Source of the DNA: Veterinaerplatzvirus T145P1
Strand: one strand, 5' to 3'
Length of the DNA: 45,062 bases
Sequence record: OZ035765.1
In this document: positions 9,338-42,906 of the stretch, piece after piece
How positions within the stretch are numbered: position 1 is the first letter of the stretch
How the letters are laid out: the number at the start of each line of letters is the position of its first letter
Notes under the pieces: generated by a model
What the model was told of the DNA's origin: nothing
What the model saw: the letters and a program-made list of their open reading frames with translations, nothing else
Databases searched by the model: none
Program-made: the position numbers and the translations under genes

Positions 9338-9370
9338 TACCTCATCGAAACGAAATGAGAGATTAAAGAA

Positions 9371-20594: not shown

Positions 20595-20652
20595 TTGCAT
20601 ACACGTAACCGATGTAACTCGATGTATACAATCTCATCCGCGGAAAATGATA

Positions 20653-20678
20653 TACGCACTGTTACGCAAATTTACGCA
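20653..20678. repeat. three TACGCA motifs at exact 10-bp phasing
   Basis: TACGCA at 20653, 20663 and 20673. Confidence 0.6.
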
Positions 20679-20694
20679 TTGGTTACATTAAAAT

Positions 20695-20751
20695 ATCTAT
20701 ATATATCAACCTTTTACTCTTATTATTATTATATATATATTACTGTGTATA
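20695..20751. repeat. AT-rich block, copy 1 (divergent control region)
   Basis: ATCTATATATATCAACCTTTTACT-(ATT)n-ATATATAT-TACTGTGTATA; near-identical to 39509-39574. Confidence 0.7.
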
Positions 20752-20852
20752 TCATGTAACTACTTCTATAGAGTGTTCCGGTTATAATTTTAATATCATG
20801 TGGATTTATACAGTATTGCGCTGCAGCTATACCAATGCACCCTCAGCAATAA

Positions 20853-21251
20853 ATGATATACACGATATACACGATGGTTACATTGAGCTATAGCTGGGCC
20901 GAGATGCCAAAAAACGTAACTAGTGCCAATGCCTACACGGAATTACAAGGATTCACGCGTAAACTTAAATCAACGATTGGCAAAACCAATTGGACTGGTT
21001 ACGGTGCCGAATATATAGTTAACTCATCGAAAGCAAACAACCAGAGAGATACAGAAATGACCTACTACATTATCAAAGAGAAAAACAACGCACTGTTCGG
21101 TGATTGCTACTTTGGCGGCCCTGCTGGATATACCACAGATAAGAAAGAGGCTGACAGATTCGAGACTAAAGAAGAAGCCCGAGATGTGCTGACTGGTTAC
21201 TTCACTGAAGAAGATTTGAAGTCTGTTAAAGTGGTTAAGGTTAAGGAATAA
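20853..21251 (+). CDS. hypothetical protein (start uncertain)
   Basis: First ATGs lie inside the GATATACAC tandem repeat; alternative starts at about 20874 or further downstream. Confidence 0.35.
   Translation: MIYTIYTMVTLSYSWAEMPKNVTSANAYTELQGFTRKLKSTIGKTNWTGYGAEYIVNSSKANNQRDTEMTYYIIKEKNNALFGDCYFGGPAGYTTDKKEADRFETKEEARDVLTGYFTEEDLKSVKVVKVKE
20855..20872. repeat. tandem GATATACAC x2 (related copy at 39480-39502)
   Basis: GATATACACGATATACAC; related CGATATATACACACGATATACAA in the second control region. Confidence 0.6.
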
Positions 21252-26705: not shown

Positions 26706-26745
26706 AAATAGCACGAATTGCTAAAGTGGATTGTAGCATCTTTGA
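26706..26745 (-). promoter_or_regulatory. palindromic operator copy at tail fibre 5' end
   Basis: TAGCACGAATTGCTA lies between a TACAAT-like box and the fibre start; operator rather than promoter geometry. Confidence 0.35.
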
Positions 26746-26771: not shown

Positions 26772-27698
26772 TTAGTCTAGCAATTCGCTTGCCTTGTATA
26801 TTCGCTTTCTTATGCCTGACTTGAAAAAATTATCATCATTTGGCATTACCACATCAAGATCGCGATCGTCAGCAACGGCGAGTAAATCAAAATCGTTGCG
26901 AGTACAAGCGATGCGTAACTTGTATTTTCTAAGCGAGTAAGCAACCATTTCCATGTTGTAGCTGGAGTAGCAAACAAGCACGCAGCGGTTGCCAGTAGCA
27001 ATGTGAACACGATAGCCGTCAATGAGATTATCGACCAGATAAGCGTACTCATCATCCTTAAAGGAACCAATAACAGCAACAGACTGGCGAGTATAATCTT
27101 TTGCAGCATAACTAACATCTCCCTCTTCATTGATAAACATTACATTACACATTTCTTCTGATATACCGTCATTATAAGCCATAAAACACGGTACTGCGTG
27201 TATCAGTTCGCCTGATTTTGTCCTGCCAACATCAAAACCAAACTCGCTATAGATGCCCTCGTATGTGCTGAGCGGAGTTGATTCCACTCTTTCCGTCCTT
27301 TCCATTATCTCTAAGCATCTTTCGTGGTCAATCTGAGCGCCCATTTTGTATGGTGATGTTCTTGAAGCTCTTTTGTTTGCTTTTGATATAACCTCTACTG
27401 GAACGAGATTCAGCCAATCACCAAGCGTATCTATTGTTTCACTATAACTCATTCCAGAACACTTCATTACCCAACCAACACCAGAATCATTTCCACACTG
27501 GTTGCATATTGCTGCGCCATTTCCCTTTTCTTGACCTAACTCATCAGTGAAGCGAAACCTATCCTTGCCAAAGCAGTAAGGGCACGGACCATGTTTCTTG
27601 CTGAGATTCTCCTTTGTCCATCCAAGATGCGATGAGTAGAACTCACTCCACATCCCTTTCATCTTGGCTATCACTTCGTTCTTATCATGTTGACTCAT
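26772..27698 (-). CDS. DNA primase (zinc-finger type, putative)
   Basis: Start moved to ATG 27698 (GGAGGT RBS); CPYC...CNQC zinc ribbon; acidic DxD-type motifs. Confidence 0.6.
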   Translation of the reverse strand: MSQHDKNEVIAKMKGMWSEFYSSHLGWTKENLSKKHGPCPYCFGKDRFRFTDELGQEKGNGAAICNQCGNDSGVGWVMKCSGMSYSETIDTLGDWLNLVPVEVISKANKRASRTSPYKMGAQIDHERCLEIMERTERVESTPLSTYEGIYSEFGFDVGRTKSGELIHAVPCFMAYNDGISEEMCNVMFINEEGDVSYAAKDYTRQSVAVIGSFKDDEYAYLVDNLIDGYRVHIATGNRCVLVCYSSYNMEMVAYSLRKYKLRIACTRNDFDLLAVADDRDLDVVMPNDDNFFKSGIRKRIYKASELLD

Positions 27699-27753
27699 AA
27701 TTACCTCCATAAACAATAAAGGCACTATACATAATGCAAAGCGCCATTGTTTA

Positions 27754-28233
27754 TCAAATCGTGCTGTTTTGCTCTTTCTTCTTTTGGTTCTCTAATTTTA
27801 TCTTGCGCCATGAACGACACTCTGGCTTAGTGGCTAATTCAGCCTCAGTGACGACTCGCAGCATATGGCGCTTTTTGCACCGAAGTGTCAGCGGTTTCCC
27901 GTTGCCGTCGAATTGCAGGTCTGGTCGGCAGAATGTAGCGCGAAAACCTTCTCCATTTCGCTTATAGTAGTTGTGAGAAAGTTGAGCCCCACGCGCAGAA
28001 ATCATACCGCGCTTAAACCATTCTTCTACAGCCTGTGGTGTTACCTTTAACTGCTTTGCGATATTCGCCTTTGTGCCGAAGAAATCAAGAACTATCTCTA
28101 GCCGCGCGCGTAGCCCGGCTCTTACTTCATCTTTTAAAACATAGTAGCCTGAAGGTCGTTTACGTTGCTTTTTGTCTTCGGTGCGGATGGTTCCGTTATT
28201 GCCGTTAATTGTTCGCTTGTCGACTGTATTCAT
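27754..28233 (-). CDS. HTH DNA-binding protein (Cro/YdaS-like), candidate early regulator
   Basis: FGTKANIAKQLKVTPQAVEEWFKRG helix-turn-helix; own canonical sigma70 promoter; palindromic operator abuts its RBS. Confidence 0.55.
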   Translation of the reverse strand: MNTVDKRTINGNNGTIRTEDKKQRKRPSGYYVLKDEVRAGLRARLEIVLDFFGTKANIAKQLKVTPQAVEEWFKRGMISARGAQLSHNYYKRNGEGFRATFCRPDLQFDGNGKPLTLRCKKRHMLRVVTEAELATKPECRSWRKIKLENQKKKEQNSTI

Positions 28234-28246
28234 TTCATTACCTCAA

Positions 28247-28289
28247 TAGCATTTTTTGTTAAAAGTCATCCTGATTTGATGGTATTATT
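28247..28289 (+). promoter_or_regulatory. conserved promoter/operator module (helicase) overlapping HTH gene 5'UTR
   Basis: TAGCATTTTTTGTTA, 22 bp, TATTAT-like; same palindrome abuts the RBS of the divergent HTH gene. Confidence 0.45.
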
Positions 28290-28315
28290 GTACTCAATTA
28301 AACGCTACAAGACAA
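28287..28315 (-). promoter_or_regulatory. sigma70-like promoter for HTH regulator gene
   Basis: Minus strand TTGTCT, 17-bp spacer, TACAAT upstream of the 27754-28233 gene. Confidence 0.5.
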
Positions 28316-28334
28316 TTTTTATAGGAATTTAGAT

Positions 28335-30329
28335 ATGTTGCCTATCGAGAAGCTGGTTGCAAATTTCGATAAAGAAAGAATCAAACAGATTCAGAGAGAT
28401 TATCAGTTTGGCGAGATAACCCCTTACGAATTCCAGTGCGTAACATTTGATGCAATCGGGAAGGCTATTGGTAAGTATGAAGCGCCATTTATCGCTGACC
28501 TTTCAGTATCTGCGGGTAAGACAATCATTCTTGCCATGATTGGTAAGCGCATGGAGCAGCTTGGGCTTCCATATATGGTTCTCTCTCGCCAGTCAGAGAT
28601 TATCAGCCAGAACTCAGAAGAGCTTCGTAATTTCGGCATCCGTAATAGCGTCTATTGCGCTGGCCTTAACGTCAAATCAGTTTACTACCCAACTATAGTG
28701 GCCAGTGAGGGTACGGCAGCCAACGGCTTGTTTAAGGGGCTTGGTGACTATGTTCCGGCAGTTATCGCTATAGATGAGTGTCACATGGTCGATCACATGG
28801 ATATCGTGGAGGCTGAAGAGAATGAAGAAACATTTGAGCAAATGAGCACAAAGAAAGGCGATATGGTTTTTAAGGATGGCGTAAACACAGGATTGCTTGG
28901 TACTGGTCGTGCTCAGTACACGCTAATTATCACCGAGATGAAACGTCGTTGTCGTGAGAAGTACGGGCGTGAGCTTCGTATATTCGGTCTTACTGGCAGC
29001 CCGTATCGTAACAACGATCATATCGTCGTTAGCAACCCAAACATCCGTGGATTCTGGCGCAAAACAGTGATTCAGGTGCCAACAAATTATCTGGTTGATT
29101 TGGGCTTCGTGGTTCCTACTGTTTATGGTGAAGTTGGTGACCTGGGTTATGACCTTAGTGAGTTTGCGCCAGACGGAAGCGATGGCGTTAAAGACTTCAG
29201 CAAGAAAGAAATGGATGCAATGGCTGCAAAGATTCACGACAACCAATCAATGACCCAAAAGATAATGGGTTTTGTTGTGAAAATACTCGAGACTCGTAAC
29301 GCTGCATTGGTAACATGCGCTGGCAAACTCCATTGTGATGAGGCTGCTGCGGCACTACCAGATGGATACCCTTACGCCATCATCACAGACTCTACGGGAG
29401 AGAGGAAGCGCAGGGAGATTCTGGCTGATTGCCAGACAGGTAAGTACAAAATAATATTCCAGATTGGTTGTCTTACTACGGGCGTAAACCAGCCGCTGTG
29501 GGATACTAGCGTCATACTACGCAAGATTGGCAGCCTAACGCTTATGATTCAGCTTCTTGGTAGGGGGATGCGCAAACTTAAGAGATCTCATATTGATGCT
29601 GGTTTTCATAAAGAAGATCACCTTGTGCTGGATTTTGCTGGCGCACTTGATGATATGGCTGAGCTTTACTTTGACCCAATTATTGAAGAGATTCAGGCTG
29701 AGAAGTTTAAATCCTCAAGAAAAGGTGGCGATGAGGTTCGTCAGTGTCCGCAATGTGGATATGAAAATTCCCCATTCGCTCGTCGCTGTAGCAATAAGAT
29801 TGATGGCGTTAGATGCGATCACTTCTTTCAGTTCACAATTTGCGAAGACATTACCGACGCGCAAACTAAATCGGTAATTAAAAAGGGTTGTGGCGCTCGC
29901 AATGACATAGCAGCAAAGGTTTGCAGGGAATGCGGCGAGATGCTTAAAGACCCAAATGCTAACCTGACTGGCAAAATGTATCGTCGTGGTGATTACCTTC
30001 GTGTTTATGATTTTCAAGTTGGGTTAAGTAAGAATCAGACAGGCATTGTAGTTAAGTACAATATAATGGCTCATAACGGAGAGAGATTTAACGCTTGGGA
30101 GTTCTTTAATCCAGAATCAGACCATCGAGTTTGCAGTGTGCTCTGGAAGAACTTTTGCTTAGCTCATATTGATAATCGCACGGAAGCGGCACGAATTGGC
30201 AGGCTTAAAAATGCCAGAATGATTATGACTAACGTAGATAAGTTCCGTGCGCCAGTTCAGGTTACGCATCGCCGGAATGCAAAAGGAAAGGACGTGATAG
30301 CGTTTAAGAATTTTGGAGAATTATTATGA
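28335..30329 (+). CDS. SF2 DEAD/DEAH-box helicase
   Basis: Walker A VSAGKT, DECH box (AIDECHMV), C-terminal Cys-rich zinc-ribbon-like region. Confidence 0.8.
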   Translation: MLPIEKLVANFDKERIKQIQRDYQFGEITPYEFQCVTFDAIGKAIGKYEAPFIADLSVSAGKTIILAMIGKRMEQLGLPYMVLSRQSEIISQNSEELRNFGIRNSVYCAGLNVKSVYYPTIVASEGTAANGLFKGLGDYVPAVIAIDECHMVDHMDIVEAEENEETFEQMSTKKGDMVFKDGVNTGLLGTGRAQYTLIITEMKRRCREKYGRELRIFGLTGSPYRNNDHIVVSNPNIRGFWRKTVIQVPTNYLVDLGFVVPTVYGEVGDLGYDLSEFAPDGSDGVKDFSKKEMDAMAAKIHDNQSMTQKIMGFVVKILETRNAALVTCAGKLHCDEAAAALPDGYPYAIITDSTGERKRREILADCQTGKYKIIFQIGCLTTGVNQPLWDTSVILRKIGSLTLMIQLLGRGMRKLKRSHIDAGFHKEDHLVLDFAGALDDMAELYFDPIIEEIQAEKFKSSRKGGDEVRQCPQCGYENSPFARRCSNKIDGVRCDHFFQFTICEDITDAQTKSVIKKGCGARNDIAAKVCRECGEMLKDPNANLTGKMYRRGDYLRVYDFQVGLSKNQTGIVVKYNIMAHNGERFNAWEFFNPESDHRVCSVLWKNFCLAHIDNRTEAARIGRLKNARMIMTNVDKFRAPVQVTHRRNAKGKDVIAFKNFGELL

Positions 30330-30785: not shown

Positions 30786-30821
30786 TACTCCATCGAAACG
30801 AAACACAAAGAGAGTAATAAA

Positions 30822-32227: not shown

Positions 32228-32479
32228 ATGTTGGGTTTAGATTTTCAGCCAGAGCATTATGATTTAGTGTATGGGCAAAGTGGATCGAAGTTTAGAGCGA
32301 TACCTATTGCTGACTGGTTCCCTCCTGACTATGTTGATGTGAACGCAAAAACTAAAGAAGGAAAGTGGGTACAGATTTACTACTCCCCGGCATGCGGAAA
32401 CCTTTGCATGACTGACCTTGATCAGAAATTAGCAATTAGTGCGGAAGTGATAGACTACTGGTTGAAAGAAGTTGAATGA
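32228..32479 (+). CDS. hypothetical protein
   Basis: 83 aa. Confidence 0.4.
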   Translation: MLGLDFQPEHYDLVYGQSGSKFRAIPIADWFPPDYVDVNAKTKEGKWVQIYYSPACGNLCMTDLDQKLAISAEVIDYWLKEVE

Positions 32480-35594: not shown

Positions 35595-37178
35595 TCACCC
35601 CAGCAATCTCGGATTAATGTAAACTTTATCACCAATCAGGCACGTATAGTTTTTCTCATCAAGCATTGGCAGTAAGTGATCTTTAATCTTCGTCATCACT
35701 CCAGCCTGAGCCTCGAACGGCTTAACCTTTCGCGCCGCTTCATACAATGAGCGAATGCCAACAACACCCTTACCGTTTTTACCCTGCTTGATCAGGATAT
35801 CAATCAGCTTATTCATCTCGGCATTGTCGCCAGCGTGACCAGCCGCGTTGGCAGATGACAAATAAGTCTTGCTAAGCTCCTGGAACATGATTACAGCTTC
35901 TTGCATGGTATCAAGCTCAATCTCTCTGGATTTCTGTGGACTCCCACCGCTAGGGTTGAACCAGTTGCGCACTGTGTGAAGAACAGCAGCAATCCTGATA
36001 GCCTGCTTATCGAATTTACCCAGCGCGCCGCGCAACATTGTGTGGGAATACTTACCGCCGTCCGCAAGGTGCGGCTCCATTTCCTGACGTGCCCGGTTTA
36101 GATATTTCATCGCTGAGTTGCTAACCGTCAACTTTACTTCTTGCTCATTCATGATTTCGTGAACCAGGCGGAAGTAGTTAGCCTTAAGCTCACCATCAAT
36201 TGGCTCGTAAGTTGAGTTGCCATTCTCATCGACGAATACACGCTCGCCAAGGAATGATTTTTCACGCACAAGTAGAAAACGTTCCGACACACCAATACCA
36301 CGAGCACCAGCATTCATGATTGCGTTTATTGTCTCATCTTGCGCAATTACAGAGATGCATCCCATAGCGACGAAGCTCATGTTGTTTTCTGCGTTCGCAC
36401 GCGCAATGGACACGTTACCAGCATCCCACGCCTTGAGTACGAGCTCGCTGTTCGTTTTCTTTGAGCCATCACCATAGGTCATACCTAGCAGAGAGTTCAC
36501 GCTCGTTGCTTCATCAGAGATAACCGCGAAGTTGCCCTGGCGGTTGTTTATTCGCGCAAGACCTTCAGGTGTCGTATCTGATACTGGAAATACGATATCG
36601 CACATCTTTTCCAGCTTCTCCTCTAAATCCTCTTTCTCCTCAAAGAGAGACGCCATCTCTGATGGTGACTTTTCCTGCTTCATCTCTTTGGATAATGCAG
36701 ACAGCTTTGCCATAATCTTTTTACGCTCACGCTTTCGCACTTCATTAAGCCGCTCAGTCTCAGCAATCATTGGCGCAATAGAAAGCGAGTTAATTGCTGA
36801 TTTACCTGTGGATGGTGGCTGACTGGTTACTACGTATAGAGAGGTCGGTTGCTGGGTTCCGTGATACTCTACTGTAAAACGTCCCAGCATGGCGGCAGAA
36901 ATACACCCCAGAAAGTGCATATAAGCTGAAGACTCTGGAAATTGAACAGAACGGGCAATATTGGCTGACAGCTTACCAACAACATCAATGTCATTACCGA
37001 GTGAGATTACGGGATACTTGTCATTAGCCGCATCAATCTCAACTGGCGCTTTCCAGAATGATTGAGACTGACGATATCCATTGGCATTAATAGCGACGCG
37101 CAGGGGTGGGAGGTTGTCTGCGGCAGCAATTGCCATAACCTGTTCAACAGATAGCTTATCTTCGTTGAAATCAAACAT
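35595..37178 (-). CDS. P-loop NTPase of unknown function
   Basis: Walker A-like SQPPSTGKS and Walker B-like FAVISDEA separated by a charged coiled-coil insertion; own promoter module upstream. Confidence 0.6.
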   Translation of the reverse strand: MFDFNEDKLSVEQVMAIAAADNLPPLRVAINANGYRQSQSFWKAPVEIDAANDKYPVISLGNDIDVVGKLSANIARSVQFPESSAYMHFLGCISAAMLGRFTVEYHGTQQPTSLYVVTSQPPSTGKSAINSLSIAPMIAETERLNEVRKRERKKIMAKLSALSKEMKQEKSPSEMASLFEEKEDLEEKLEKMCDIVFPVSDTTPEGLARINNRQGNFAVISDEATSVNSLLGMTYGDGSKKTNSELVLKAWDAGNVSIARANAENNMSFVAMGCISVIAQDETINAIMNAGARGIGVSERFLLVREKSFLGERVFVDENGNSTYEPIDGELKANYFRLVHEIMNEQEVKLTVSNSAMKYLNRARQEMEPHLADGGKYSHTMLRGALGKFDKQAIRIAAVLHTVRNWFNPSGGSPQKSREIELDTMQEAVIMFQELSKTYLSSANAAGHAGDNAEMNKLIDILIKQGKNGKGVVGIRSLYEAARKVKPFEAQAGVMTKIKDHLLPMLDEKNYTCLIGDKVYINPRLLG

Positions 37179-37995: not shown

Positions 37996-38038
37996 ACTAT
38001 ACATTGAAAGCCCCGAAGGGCTTTAGCAATTAGTGCTG
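37996..38038 (-). promoter_or_regulatory. conserved promoter/operator module
   Basis: Minus strand TAGCACTAATTGCTA, 22 bp, TATAGT, leader TATCCAATCGAAACGAAACG. Confidence 0.5.
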
Positions 38039-39219: not shown

Positions 39220-39232
39220 TTCGTTAGATTTA

Positions 39233-39321
39233 TGTATTGTTGCAGATATTGCAATGATTCACTTGATTATTGCACATACAGCAATATTGCTTCCGATGCA
39301 ATGATGTTTTTGATTGTTGCG
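39233..39321. repeat. iteron-like array of ATTG(N)TGCA / ATTGCAAT motifs
   Basis: At least six related motifs spaced 14-18 bp apart. Confidence 0.5.
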
Positions 39322-39508
39322 AAAAGTGAAATTAAGTGGTGAGTGAGTGAATGAAAGATGGATGGACTACCATACAAGTTGATTTTTACCAATCTATGGG
39401 AGCCTCACGGATATACGCGTATCCTCCGTATACTCAGTGTCGTCACAAAAGTTAGTGACCACTAACCTACGTTTTTACGCGATATATACACACGATATAC
39501 AATATAAT

Positions 39509-39574
39509 ATCTATATATATCAACCTTTTACTTTATTATTATTATTATTATTATATATATGTATACTGTGTATA
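39509..39574. repeat. AT-rich block, copy 2 with longer (ATT)n tract
   Basis: Same core as 20695-20751 with two to three extra ATT units. Confidence 0.7.
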
Positions 39575-39614
39575 CCGGTAATTGGTGAGATTATTGATAT
39601 GTTCCGCGCAGATA

Positions 39615-39632
39615 TTCTGACACCTGTCAGAA
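39615..39632. promoter_or_regulatory. perfect 8-bp-arm inverted repeat TTCTGACA-CC-TGTCAGAA
   Basis: Directly readable palindrome downstream of the AT-rich block and upstream of the 39850 gene. Confidence 0.45.
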
Positions 39633-39849
39633 ATGGATGGCATTGTAGGAATAAAAGGCACATATATAGGGAATGGCTTCAAAAATCTGTACACATCGGA
39701 TACGGCACATTTACAACCAGCAATGGAGGGGCCTCTGGAGGCAAGAAGCGTATCCATGATAAAATAGACGAAAATATACATTGACCGACACGTAAATAGA
39801 TGGCAATATAGCAGTCACTGAAACGAAGTAAAACAAACGAGGTATCAAC

Positions 39850-40398
39850 ATGCAGAAAGTAACACTAGGTGAAGTTATCCGTGAGATGGTGCGCAACGCG
39901 ATGGTGTCCGAGAGTGGTGAGTTTAAAGTTCCGGTTAGCCAGATATTCAAACTGGTTCGAGGCAAGGAATACCCTGAAATGGTGTATGACGAAGATACTA
40001 GTGAGATCCTCAACCTGGCAGATAGGGCGATGCCGGAACTAAAGAACTCATACATCTATAACACAGTGTCGAGAATGACAGAGCTTCGCGATGCTAATAA
40101 GCGAGCGAGATATAAGTTCATCTGGATTGATGATGACGGAGAGCAAACAAGGCCCGGTAGCTTCGACGGTGATGGCGCTGATAAATACCTGGTCATATAC
40201 ATTGAGAACGGCGCGCACTGGACTGGGAGTCGCGAAAAGAAAAAGCAGGAAGCGGAGAAAGAGGCGGCTATCATTGAAAAGTTCAAGTCTAGACTGCTCA
40301 AGCTGTCACCAAGTGTTGCTGGCTTGGAAGGTGAAGAACTTAAGGGCGCTGTTACAATGATTAATGCTTATCAGGAAATGATTAAGGAGACTAAGTAG
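39850..40398 (+). CDS. hypothetical protein
   Basis: 182 aa; first plus-strand gene after the divergent control region. Confidence 0.5.
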   Translation: MQKVTLGEVIREMVRNAMVSESGEFKVPVSQIFKLVRGKEYPEMVYDEDTSEILNLADRAMPELKNSYIYNTVSRMTELRDANKRARYKFIWIDDDGEQTRPGSFDGDGADKYLVIYIENGAHWTGSREKKKQEAEKEAAIIEKFKSRLLKLSPSVAGLEGEELKGAVTMINAYQEMIKETK

Positions 40399-42702: not shown

Positions 42703-42836
42703 TTTACATCCACACGTACTACACTGGTAAGTTTAATAGCGTCAAACATGTCCGTGTTCACGATAACTACGAGAGCGCAAAAGCTCAATGGTTGGTTCTT
42801 GGTGGTGACATTAATTCATACAGAGTTGCTGAGTAG
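42699..42836 (+). CDS. hypothetical protein (45 aa)
   Basis: ATGA-coupled; stop TAG is the first triplet of the next module. Confidence 0.3.
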   Translation: MIYIHTYYTGKFNSVKHVRVHDNYESAKAQWLVLGGDINSYRVAE

Positions 42837-42876
42837 CACTAATTGCTAAAACAGTATTGGGGTAATTTGTTATAGT
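42834..42876 (+). promoter_or_regulatory. conserved promoter/operator module
   Basis: TAGCACTAATTGCTA, 22 bp, TATAGT, leader TACCCCATCGAAACGAGAGAGG. Confidence 0.5.
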
Positions 42877-42906
42877 TACCCCATCGAAACGAGAGAGGAA
42901 TAAGAA

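Follow-up and report, generated by a model that had tools for sequence, protein, structure and literature searches.

The genome of Veterinaerplatzvirus T145P1 (sequence record OZ035765.1), analyzed here as one stretch of 45,062 nucleotides that we call the window, encodes a 159-aa protein on the minus strand between a primase gene and a divergent helicase gene. A model that read the sequence alone (the original prediction) had proposed this protein as a candidate master regulator: a helix-turn-helix protein, transcribed from a textbook sigma70 promoter immediately after infection, that would bind a palindrome in its own leader and switch on the other promoters carrying a copy of it. Our analysis identifies the gene as the ortholog of a known regulator, Pir of phage T1, and suggests a different reader for the repeated motif, a directional 20-bp box that closely resembles the marbox of the host activators MarA, SoxS and Rob. 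We favor, with a probability of about 0.55, an arrangement in which a Pir-type, Cro-like regulator is interlocked with a host MarA/SoxS/Rob-type promoter.

A regulator gene between primase and helicase

The window comes from a T1-like siphovirus, a coliphage of Drexlerviridae, Braunvirinae, Veterinaerplatzvirus, and the region is 98.4% identical to Escherichia phage 2725-N35. The genes and control elements at the locus are:

27754-28233, minus strand: Pir-type regulator open reading frame, 159 aa (ATG 28233-28231, TGA 27756-27754)
26772-27698, minus strand: DNA primase gene (zinc-ribbon primase), downstream of the regulator, with its own putative box promoter
28335-30329, plus strand: superfamily 2 (SF2) helicase gene, divergent from the regulator and putatively served by a box-dependent promoter
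28246-28265, plus strand: marbox-type box ATAGCATTTTTTGTTAAAAG (15-bp core 28249-28263), facing the helicase and lying reversed within the regulator's 5' leader
28280-28288, plus strand: helicase extended -10, TGgTATTAT, 17 bp after the box and without a -35 hexamer; predicted start ~28295
28241-28245, minus strand: regulator Shine-Dalgarno sequence, TGAGG, read from sequence and separated from the ATG by 7 nt
28287-28292, minus strand: regulator -10, TACAAT, overlapping the helicase -10 on the opposite strand; predicted start ~28280
28310-28315, minus strand: regulator -35, TTGTCT, with a 17-bp spacer, inside the helicase 5' leader
27748-27767, minus strand: second marbox-type box, ACAGCACGATTTGATAAACA, overlapping the regulator's last codons and stop and belonging to the putative primase promoter; 15.4 bits
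27724-27729, minus strand: primase promoter -10, TATAGT, 18 bp after the second box

The open reading frame lies where it had been placed and is a genuine gene with a wide distribution: over residues 1-155 it has a phrog_2856 ('transcriptional regulator') match with an E value of 6.9e-83, and tblastn finds homologs in 824 phage records. The 113 clustered homologs lie in contigs of ~45-53 kb, and among 1.84 billion representatives the full-length family forms only ~14 clusters when grouped at 50% identity. The protein shares 52% identity over 133 aa (BLASTP, E 3e-46) with Orf23 of T1, which Laganenka et al. (2019, mBio; PMC6737242) named Pir, for prophage induction regulator. Synteny is shared as well, with the gene placed between primase and divergent helicase in the window, 2725-N35, T1, Rtp, Vc1, Motto, Snitter and NJS1, and likewise in egaa, SECphi27, phSE-2, Reinasaurus, pSf-2, LF82-40 and L135, the contig of the most divergent homolog. 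The regulator is the Rtp-group ortholog of T1 Orf23, a Cro-fold helix-turn-helix protein present in all Drexlerviridae. As a copy of Pir, the only regulator of a T1-like phage with an experimental record, the gene itself is not new. The annotation of an annotated relative holds no other regulator, and Pir is the sole predicted DNA-binding protein of the phage.

The repeated motif is a directional box

What exactly is repeated across the window? In the form originally written, TAGCAC-N4-TTGCTA, the motif has 3 matches at up to two mismatches against 4.8 expected, and the real repeat is instead a 20-bp directional box. The copy that had been singled out, at 28247-28261 on the plus strand, reads TAGCATTTTTTGTTA, an imperfect palindrome (TAGCA versus TAACA) that stops one base from the regulator's Shine-Dalgarno sequence. 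Repeat analysis places the box in a module consisting of the box, ~18 bp, a TATAGT-like -10 and a leader, CATCGAAACGA, with ~19 copies in the window. The box consensus is AATAGCAC(G/T)(A/T)(A/T)TTGCTAAA, which contains the dyad TAGCA-N5-TGCTA, and boxes start at 2116+, 9294+, 20595-, 22881+, 27767-, 28246+, 30742+, 31583+, 33693+, 37252-, 38039-, 39220-, 40489+, 40786+, 41796+, 42323+, 42833+ and 43700+. They precede early, replication, lysis and even structural genes. Elsewhere, T1 has 25 box matches, Vc1 16, Motto 19 and Snitter 17, and exact-box matches in viral contigs fall almost all in contigs of 41-53 kb.

The copies score 27.0 bits in the forward direction versus -4.2 bits as reverse complement. 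G4 is invariant and its dyad partner C14 is not, and there are no dyad partners for the conserved A0, A1, C7, T11, A17 and A18. This directionality makes the box a poor fit to a symmetric Cro-type dimer. It comes in two sub-classes, T-tract and GAATT: all lineages have a T-tract box between pir and helicase, the box at erf is A-type throughout, and Dam, DUF3987 and other promoters switch sub-class between lineages, so we treat the sub-classes as a lead and not as a rule.

The leader, extended to CATCGAAACGA(G/A)A, follows most module -10s at 7-20 nt downstream (9344-9355, 30792-30803, 42883-42894). A second variant reads CACACCAACAA, and the leader also follows a box-less promoter at 21014.

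The box resembles the marbox of E. coli

A full-text search with the box sequences led to the MarA chromatin immunoprecipitation sequencing (ChIP-seq) study of Sharma et al. (2017; PMC5684230), in which the consensus marbox is 5'-gcactaattgctaaa-3'. This 15-mer occurs exactly, at 15/15 positions, at 38022-38036 on the minus strand and 42836-42850 on the plus strand of the window, and with up to three mismatches it has 18 matches against 2.0 expected. Circularity was avoided by using only the 33 MarA ChIP-seq sites of E. coli to derive a score matrix. On the window, this matrix gives 17 matches of at least 14 bits against 0.9 expected, and 16 of the 17 are module boxes. The phage boxes score 15-19.2 bits, compared with a median of 12.4 and a maximum of 19.2 for the authentic E. 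coli sites. The regulator/helicase copy, GCATTTTTTGTTAAA, reaches 15.0 bits; the ypeC MarA site, gcattttttgctaaa, differs from it at one position and the footprinted xseA site at two.

Geometry points the same way. Class II marbox promoters have forward sites that overlap the -35 and are centered at -36 to -55 (PMC6900184; PMC12052159). Every phage box that has a -10 faces forward, in the window and in T1, Vc1, Motto and Snitter, and the center of the box core lies at about -40 from the predicted start. The spacer between box and -10 is 18 bp in 14/19 cases, 19 bp in three and 17 bp in one, the helicase copy. In a worked control, E. coli micF, the core GCACTGAATGTCAAA (a ChIP-seq site) faces forward, the distance from the 20-bp box to TAGAAT is 18 bp, and the MicF RNA start lies 7 nt after this -10. 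The phage boxes also fit, in a pattern test, the older 20-bp marbox consensus, AYnGCACnnWnnRYYAAAYn, together with the rule of 18-19 bp that was reportedly set out by Martin et al. in 1999. The module promoters are thus like E. coli class II promoters such as micF in box sequence, forward orientation, 18-bp spacer and lack of a -35 hexamer. They differ in that positions 0-3 (AATA) of the box are conserved beyond the marbox consensus, in the conserved leader CATCGAAACGA that follows, and in density: ~19 near-consensus sites in 45 kb, spread over all functional classes, versus 33 ChIP-detected sites in a 5-Mb genome.

Judged by sequence, polarity and spacing, the box is probably a high-scoring host MarA/SoxS/Rob marbox. 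No MarA/AraC homolog was found in the phage, as phmmer and hmmsearch with MarA and SoxS queries against 720 six-frame segments gave nothing below E 0.4, and neither HTH_18 nor AraC was matched when ten unassigned proteins were scanned against Pfam. In the literature searched, we found no paper linking marboxes, MarA, SoxS or Rob with T1-like phages; T1-like genome papers have predicted promoters only against the sigma70 consensus, and a large host-factor screen preprint makes no mention of rob, marA or soxS. The marbox likeness of this shared promoter motif has apparently gone unreported, and it would correct what had been supposed to be the regulator's operator.

The response to Pir does not follow the box in T1

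In uninfected E. coli, plasmid-expressed Pir raises Phol and Pdam, lowers Ppir and PrecE, and leaves the T1 orf65 promoter unaffected, and CRISPR interference (CRISPRi) against pir blocks T1 lysis (PMC6737242). In the same study, Ppir, Pdam and PrecE were expressed in lysate of uninfected cells and repressed by cAMP-CRP, and the Pdam, Phol and Porf65 reporters were active in uninfected cells (PMC6737242). The lysogeny claim of that work has been contested (PMC8262962); the reporter data have not. We mapped the reporter fragments (-150 to +15) onto T1 for their box content:

T1 Pdam: class II box, 25.9 bits; putative box-dependent core promoter; up with Pir
T1 Porf65: perfect class II box, 30.5 bits; putative box-dependent core promoter; no response to Pir
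T1 Ppir: box in the leader; -35/-10 core promoter; down with Pir
T1 Phol: no box; TTGTGT-17-TAAAAT; up with Pir
T1 PrecE: no box; TTGACT-16-TATAAT; down with Pir

Across these five fragments, the response to Pir does not track the box. The proposal of an autoregulating regulator is supported because the T1 ortholog represses its own promoter in reporter assays; regulator status and autoregulation, already known from Pir, would carry over to the window by analogy. No CRP site (TGTGA-N6-TCACA, up to two mismatches) was found in the window's or T1's fragments, though T1 Ppir is CRP-repressed.

Regulator and helicase promoters share a -10 region

The regulator's promoter, TTGTCT-17-TACAAT, is placed exactly as described, though 'textbook' overstates it: it matches at 9/12 positions, and 20 kb contain 50 sites that do as well, compared with 43 ± 5 after shuffling, which is not significant alone. 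We take the promoter to be real because it is conserved across lineages, not because of its score. We compared the intergenic regions of 13 Drexlerviridae (T1, pSf-2, Rtp, LF82-40, NJS1, egaa, SECphi27, phSE-2, Reinasaurus, Vc1, Motto, Snitter and the window) and added L135. A box-less -35/-10 lies at the same place on the regulator strand in 13/13 and in L135, with -35-like hexamers TTGACT, TTGTCA, TTGAAT, TTGAGT, TTGATG and TTGTCT, a spacer of 16-17 bp, and a -10 of TATAAT, TATCAT or TACAAT. Being box-independent and of sigma70 type, it should be usable by host polymerase, as had been suggested. The further claim that the box copy sits against the regulator's ribosome-binding site and at the same time serves the divergent helicase promoter is borne out as a family-wide layout: in all 13 phages and L135, the box is found downstream of the regulator's predicted start and upstream of its ribosome-binding site, facing the helicase.

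The two promoters are divergent and have a common -10 region. In most lineages the regulator -10 is TATAATA, the opposite strand of which gives the helicase -10, TATTAT. In the window, the helicase hexamer TATTAT lies at 28283-28288, preceded by TG at 28280-28281, and its overlap with TACAAT is only 2 bp, 28287-28288.

Where might the regulator itself bind? The window's regulator-helicase intergenic region has no inverted repeats of at least 9 nt, and near the regulator gene we found no repeats or iterons that could be an alternative operator. In T1 (L005), the two arms of a 14-nt inverted repeat, AACGTTTACTTTAT / ATAGCGTAAACGTT, lie on either side of the -10 common to Ppir and Phelicase, at 36462-36499; the repeat is also present in pSf-2 and is possibly a lineage-specific Pir operator. 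The core of this repeat, GTAAACGTT, shows hardly any enrichment in T1 (19 matches versus 11.5 expected; 4 of 100 shuffles reach 19), and no counterpart was found in the window.

A Cro-fold protein with a variable recognition helix

The regulator consists of a conserved basic N-terminal arm (residues ~4-26), a Cro-fold helix-turn-helix core (~30-95), a conserved C-terminal core (96-120) and a lineage-specific basic tail. The proposed likeness to Cro and YdaS holds at the level of fold, the core being modeled confidently, as a monomer, as an all-alpha Cro fold with a helix-turn-helix, with structural matches that include the N15 Cro-operator complex 6on0. It falls short in the profile searches, where Pfam P22_Cro scores 26.9 bits, under its threshold of 30.2, and YdaS 18.6, under 30; some homologs have precomputed PF14549 or PF15943 matches.

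We measured conservation as per-position entropy across 35 aligned homologs. Variation peaks in the recognition helix (residues 66-75), with a mean entropy of 2.1 bits and 10-13 residue types at each of positions 66, 70 and 74. Nearly invariant, at 0.8-0.9 bits, are the N-terminal arm DKRTxNGNNGTxRGxDKKxRKRP, an RGMIS motif and the core FCRPDLxFDxNGKP. The box, by comparison, is invariant in phages whose recognition helix varies, so the helix is unlikely to be its reader; such strong variation is not expected of a helix that reads an invariant site.

The arm motif (residues 4-26; window 28156-28224, minus strand) is the best-conserved part of the family, has no known counterpart, is modeled with low confidence and predicted to be flexible, and is kept in even the most distant homologs. 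The basic, Cys-containing C-terminus of the original prediction is a mixed case: the tail (136-159) is lineage-specific and missing from many homologs, and C102 and C119 are conserved in at least 90% of homologs, though T1 lacks C102. A C-terminal zinc finger or zinc site is unlikely because the cysteines are few and C102 is absent in T1.

A proposed promoter switch and its alternatives

How might the parts of this locus work together? Unmodified host RNA polymerase would transcribe the regulator from its own -35/-10, for which the box would not be needed. A host marbox activator (MarA, SoxS, Rob, or RamA in other enterics), a monomeric protein with two helix-turn-helix motifs, would bind at 28246-28265, a box placed as in class II activation, and recruit polymerase to the helicase extended -10. 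We infer that RNA polymerase occupies only one of the two overlapping promoters at a time; recruitment in the helicase direction would then take the shared -10 from the regulator promoter, the bound activator would sit on the regulator leader, and regulator expression would be highest at low box occupancy. By analogy with T1, the regulator may repress its own promoter and the box-less promoter of the exonuclease operon, and may raise some middle and late promoters. The invariant box is a less likely operator for the regulator than a lineage-specific site around the core promoter that both genes share.

Several points weigh against this arrangement, and some of them speak for the unlikely but substantial alternative that a regulator dimer binds TAGCA-N5-TGCTA, activates the module promoters in class II fashion and shuts off its own promoter via the leader copy, with the marbox likeness being secondary (for example, with host factors acting early and the phage protein later). 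The box does contain a 5+5 dyad with half-site centers 10 bp apart, Cro-fold proteins bind pseudo-palindromes as dimers (6on0), and A3, which is kept in 88% of copies and unspecified in the marbox consensus, lengthens the dyad. Of the T1 promoters with a box, Pir activates Pdam and represses its own, where the box is in the leader; both of these responsive T1 boxes are T-tract, like the pir/helicase box of all lineages, and the box of unresponsive Porf65 is GAATT (n=3). No other DNA-binding protein is predicted in the phage, all genomes examined have both the regulator and the box, and the regulator's invariant N-terminal arm could read an invariant site despite the variation of the helix. Co-occurrence of protein and box was tried as a test and proved uninformative because both are family-wide; L135, too, keeps the two. 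It is by sequence, polarity and spacing, moreover, that the box is assigned to a host activator; which protein binds there and whether the promoters compete are inferred, and the start sites are predicted. T1-like phages are vigorous without mar/sox inducers. Finally, records whose stated hosts are V. cholerae (Vc1, L003) and P. aeruginosa (Motto, L004; G+C 45%) carry the same boxes and regulator; either the stated hosts are in doubt, or the boxes function in hosts that may lack MarA/SoxS/Rob orthologs.

The T1 data nonetheless fit poorly with a regulator that switches the module promoters through the box, as Porf65, with a perfect box in class II geometry, is Pir-independent, box-less Phol and PrecE respond, and the module promoter Pdam is active without any phage protein, both in uninfected cells and in their lysate. 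Nor does the palindrome look like the regulator's operator: the box is directional, matches the site of a two-helix-turn-helix monomer at 15/15 positions with micF-like 18-bp spacing, and stays conserved while the recognition helix varies at its base-contacting positions. Boxes are likewise found at the earliest small genes, all of which would have to wait for the regulator if it read the box directly. The regulator could instead stay off the box and act via the host marbox activators, by raising marA/soxS, freeing sequestered Rob, or co-activating RNA polymerase through its N-terminal arm. The invariance of this basic arm even in distant homologs suggests an invariant partner over a variable operator, competition between the regulator promoter and a box-dependent promoter might provide feedback on activator availability, and Pir raises Pdam in uninfected cells, which contain host factors; we nevertheless consider this improbable, since Porf65, with the best box, is unresponsive and box-less Phol responds, and since the Cro fold argues for DNA binding. 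More improbable still is that the regulator is mainly a DNA-binding protein of the replication module, such as an origin or helicase-loading factor, with its transcriptional effects being side effects of over-expression. Its synteny is conserved inside the replication module, and iteron-like GATATACRC repeats and a shared AT-rich 75-nt element occur in two large non-coding regions, but the effects on four T1 promoters are specific and opposite, CRISPRi knock-down loses lysis, there are no iterons near the gene, and the protein has no similarity to known initiators. We retain the interlock of a Pir-type regulator with a host marbox-type promoter as our preferred reading.

Relation to known systems

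The closest known system is T1 Pir, with which the regulator shares phrog_2856, its placement and the intergenic design of a box-less promoter, a shared -10 and a leader box. The recognition helices differ (TPQAVEEWFK in the window, SNQTVQGWKE in T1), and the window protein has an extra basic C-terminal tail. T1 also has a second regulator, Orf65, which represses pir and has no homolog in the window, and the 14-nt inverted repeat around its shared -10 contrasts with the lack of any such repeat of at least 9 nt in the window's intergenic region. Compared with the all-alpha Cro proteins (P22 Cro, N15 Cro and Xylella Xfaso1 Cro; P22_Cro, YdaS), the regulator is twice as long, with an extra invariant basic N-terminal arm and a C-terminal core without structural match, and it belongs to a virulent phage without a repressor partner.

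In the MotA/AsiA system of T4, a phage motif, the MotA box, replaces the -35 at many promoters and is read by an early phage protein. The locus resembles this system only in the logic originally proposed for it, whereas the window motif equals a host activator's site and, on the T1 data, the promoters would work without phage proteins; none of the scanned open reading frames is MotA-like or AsiA-like. Bidirectional bacterial promoters with a shared symmetric -10 were reportedly described by Warman et al. in 2021. The present pair is similar in its overlapping opposite-strand -10s (TATAATA both ways in most lineages) and in starts predicted ~18 bp apart, and dissimilar in that the overlap in the window is 2 bp and that one arm is putatively activator-dependent and the other -35-dependent.

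Other promoters and repeats in the window

The regulator promoter had been presented as an exception, but other box-less promoters exist in the window. One, TGGACT-17-TATAGT, lies at 20991-21019 on the plus strand before the exonuclease/recombination operon and has a TTGGCAAAACCAA palindrome in place of the box; its T1 equivalent, PrecE, is Pir-repressed. Another, TTGACC-17-CAATAT, lies at 39781-39809 on the plus strand before a DUF7174 gene. The tail-spike gene, on the minus strand, has an extended -10, TGCTACAAT, with the -10 at 26735-26730. A top-scoring reversed box lies in the tail-spike leader at 26708-26727 on the plus strand, where its own strand faces only a terminator; it recurs at 34902 in L005, 13808 in L006 and 5091 in L135, a second conserved case of a box in the leader of a box-less promoter.

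Two non-coding regions between divergent operons, 20600-21040 and 39230-39850, share a 75-nt AT-rich repeat (20684-20758 and 39498-39572) and contain all five exact GATATACRC copies of the window, making them candidate origin or packaging regions. At 39236-39332, upstream of the leftward box promoter at 39220, lie three 20-nt repeats, ATTGTTGCAGATATTGCAAT, which are TTGCA-N5-TGCAA-like palindromes. A near-consensus marbox core, GCACTAATTGCTAAT (16 bits), lies antisense in a coding region at 32428-32442 on the minus strand, with no recognizable -10 after it.

Implications for T1-like phages

We tentatively extend this reading to the family as a whole, and hold it slightly short of an even bet that T1-like phages run nearly their whole transcription program from near-consensus class II marboxes, that is, on Rob/MarA/SoxS, with the Pir gene as the one unit wired against it. 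This would explain the presence of strong -35-less promoters in a virulent phage that has no polymerase or sigma factor of its own. If true, Pir would be recast as one arm of a promoter-competition switch and not a master activator, and its output would report low activator occupancy. Infection would be coupled to the bile, antibiotic and oxidative-stress state of the host, a marA soxS rob host would be a poor host, and the infection efficiency of a common gut and laboratory phage family would be tied to the regulators with which its host responds to antibiotics and oxidative stress.

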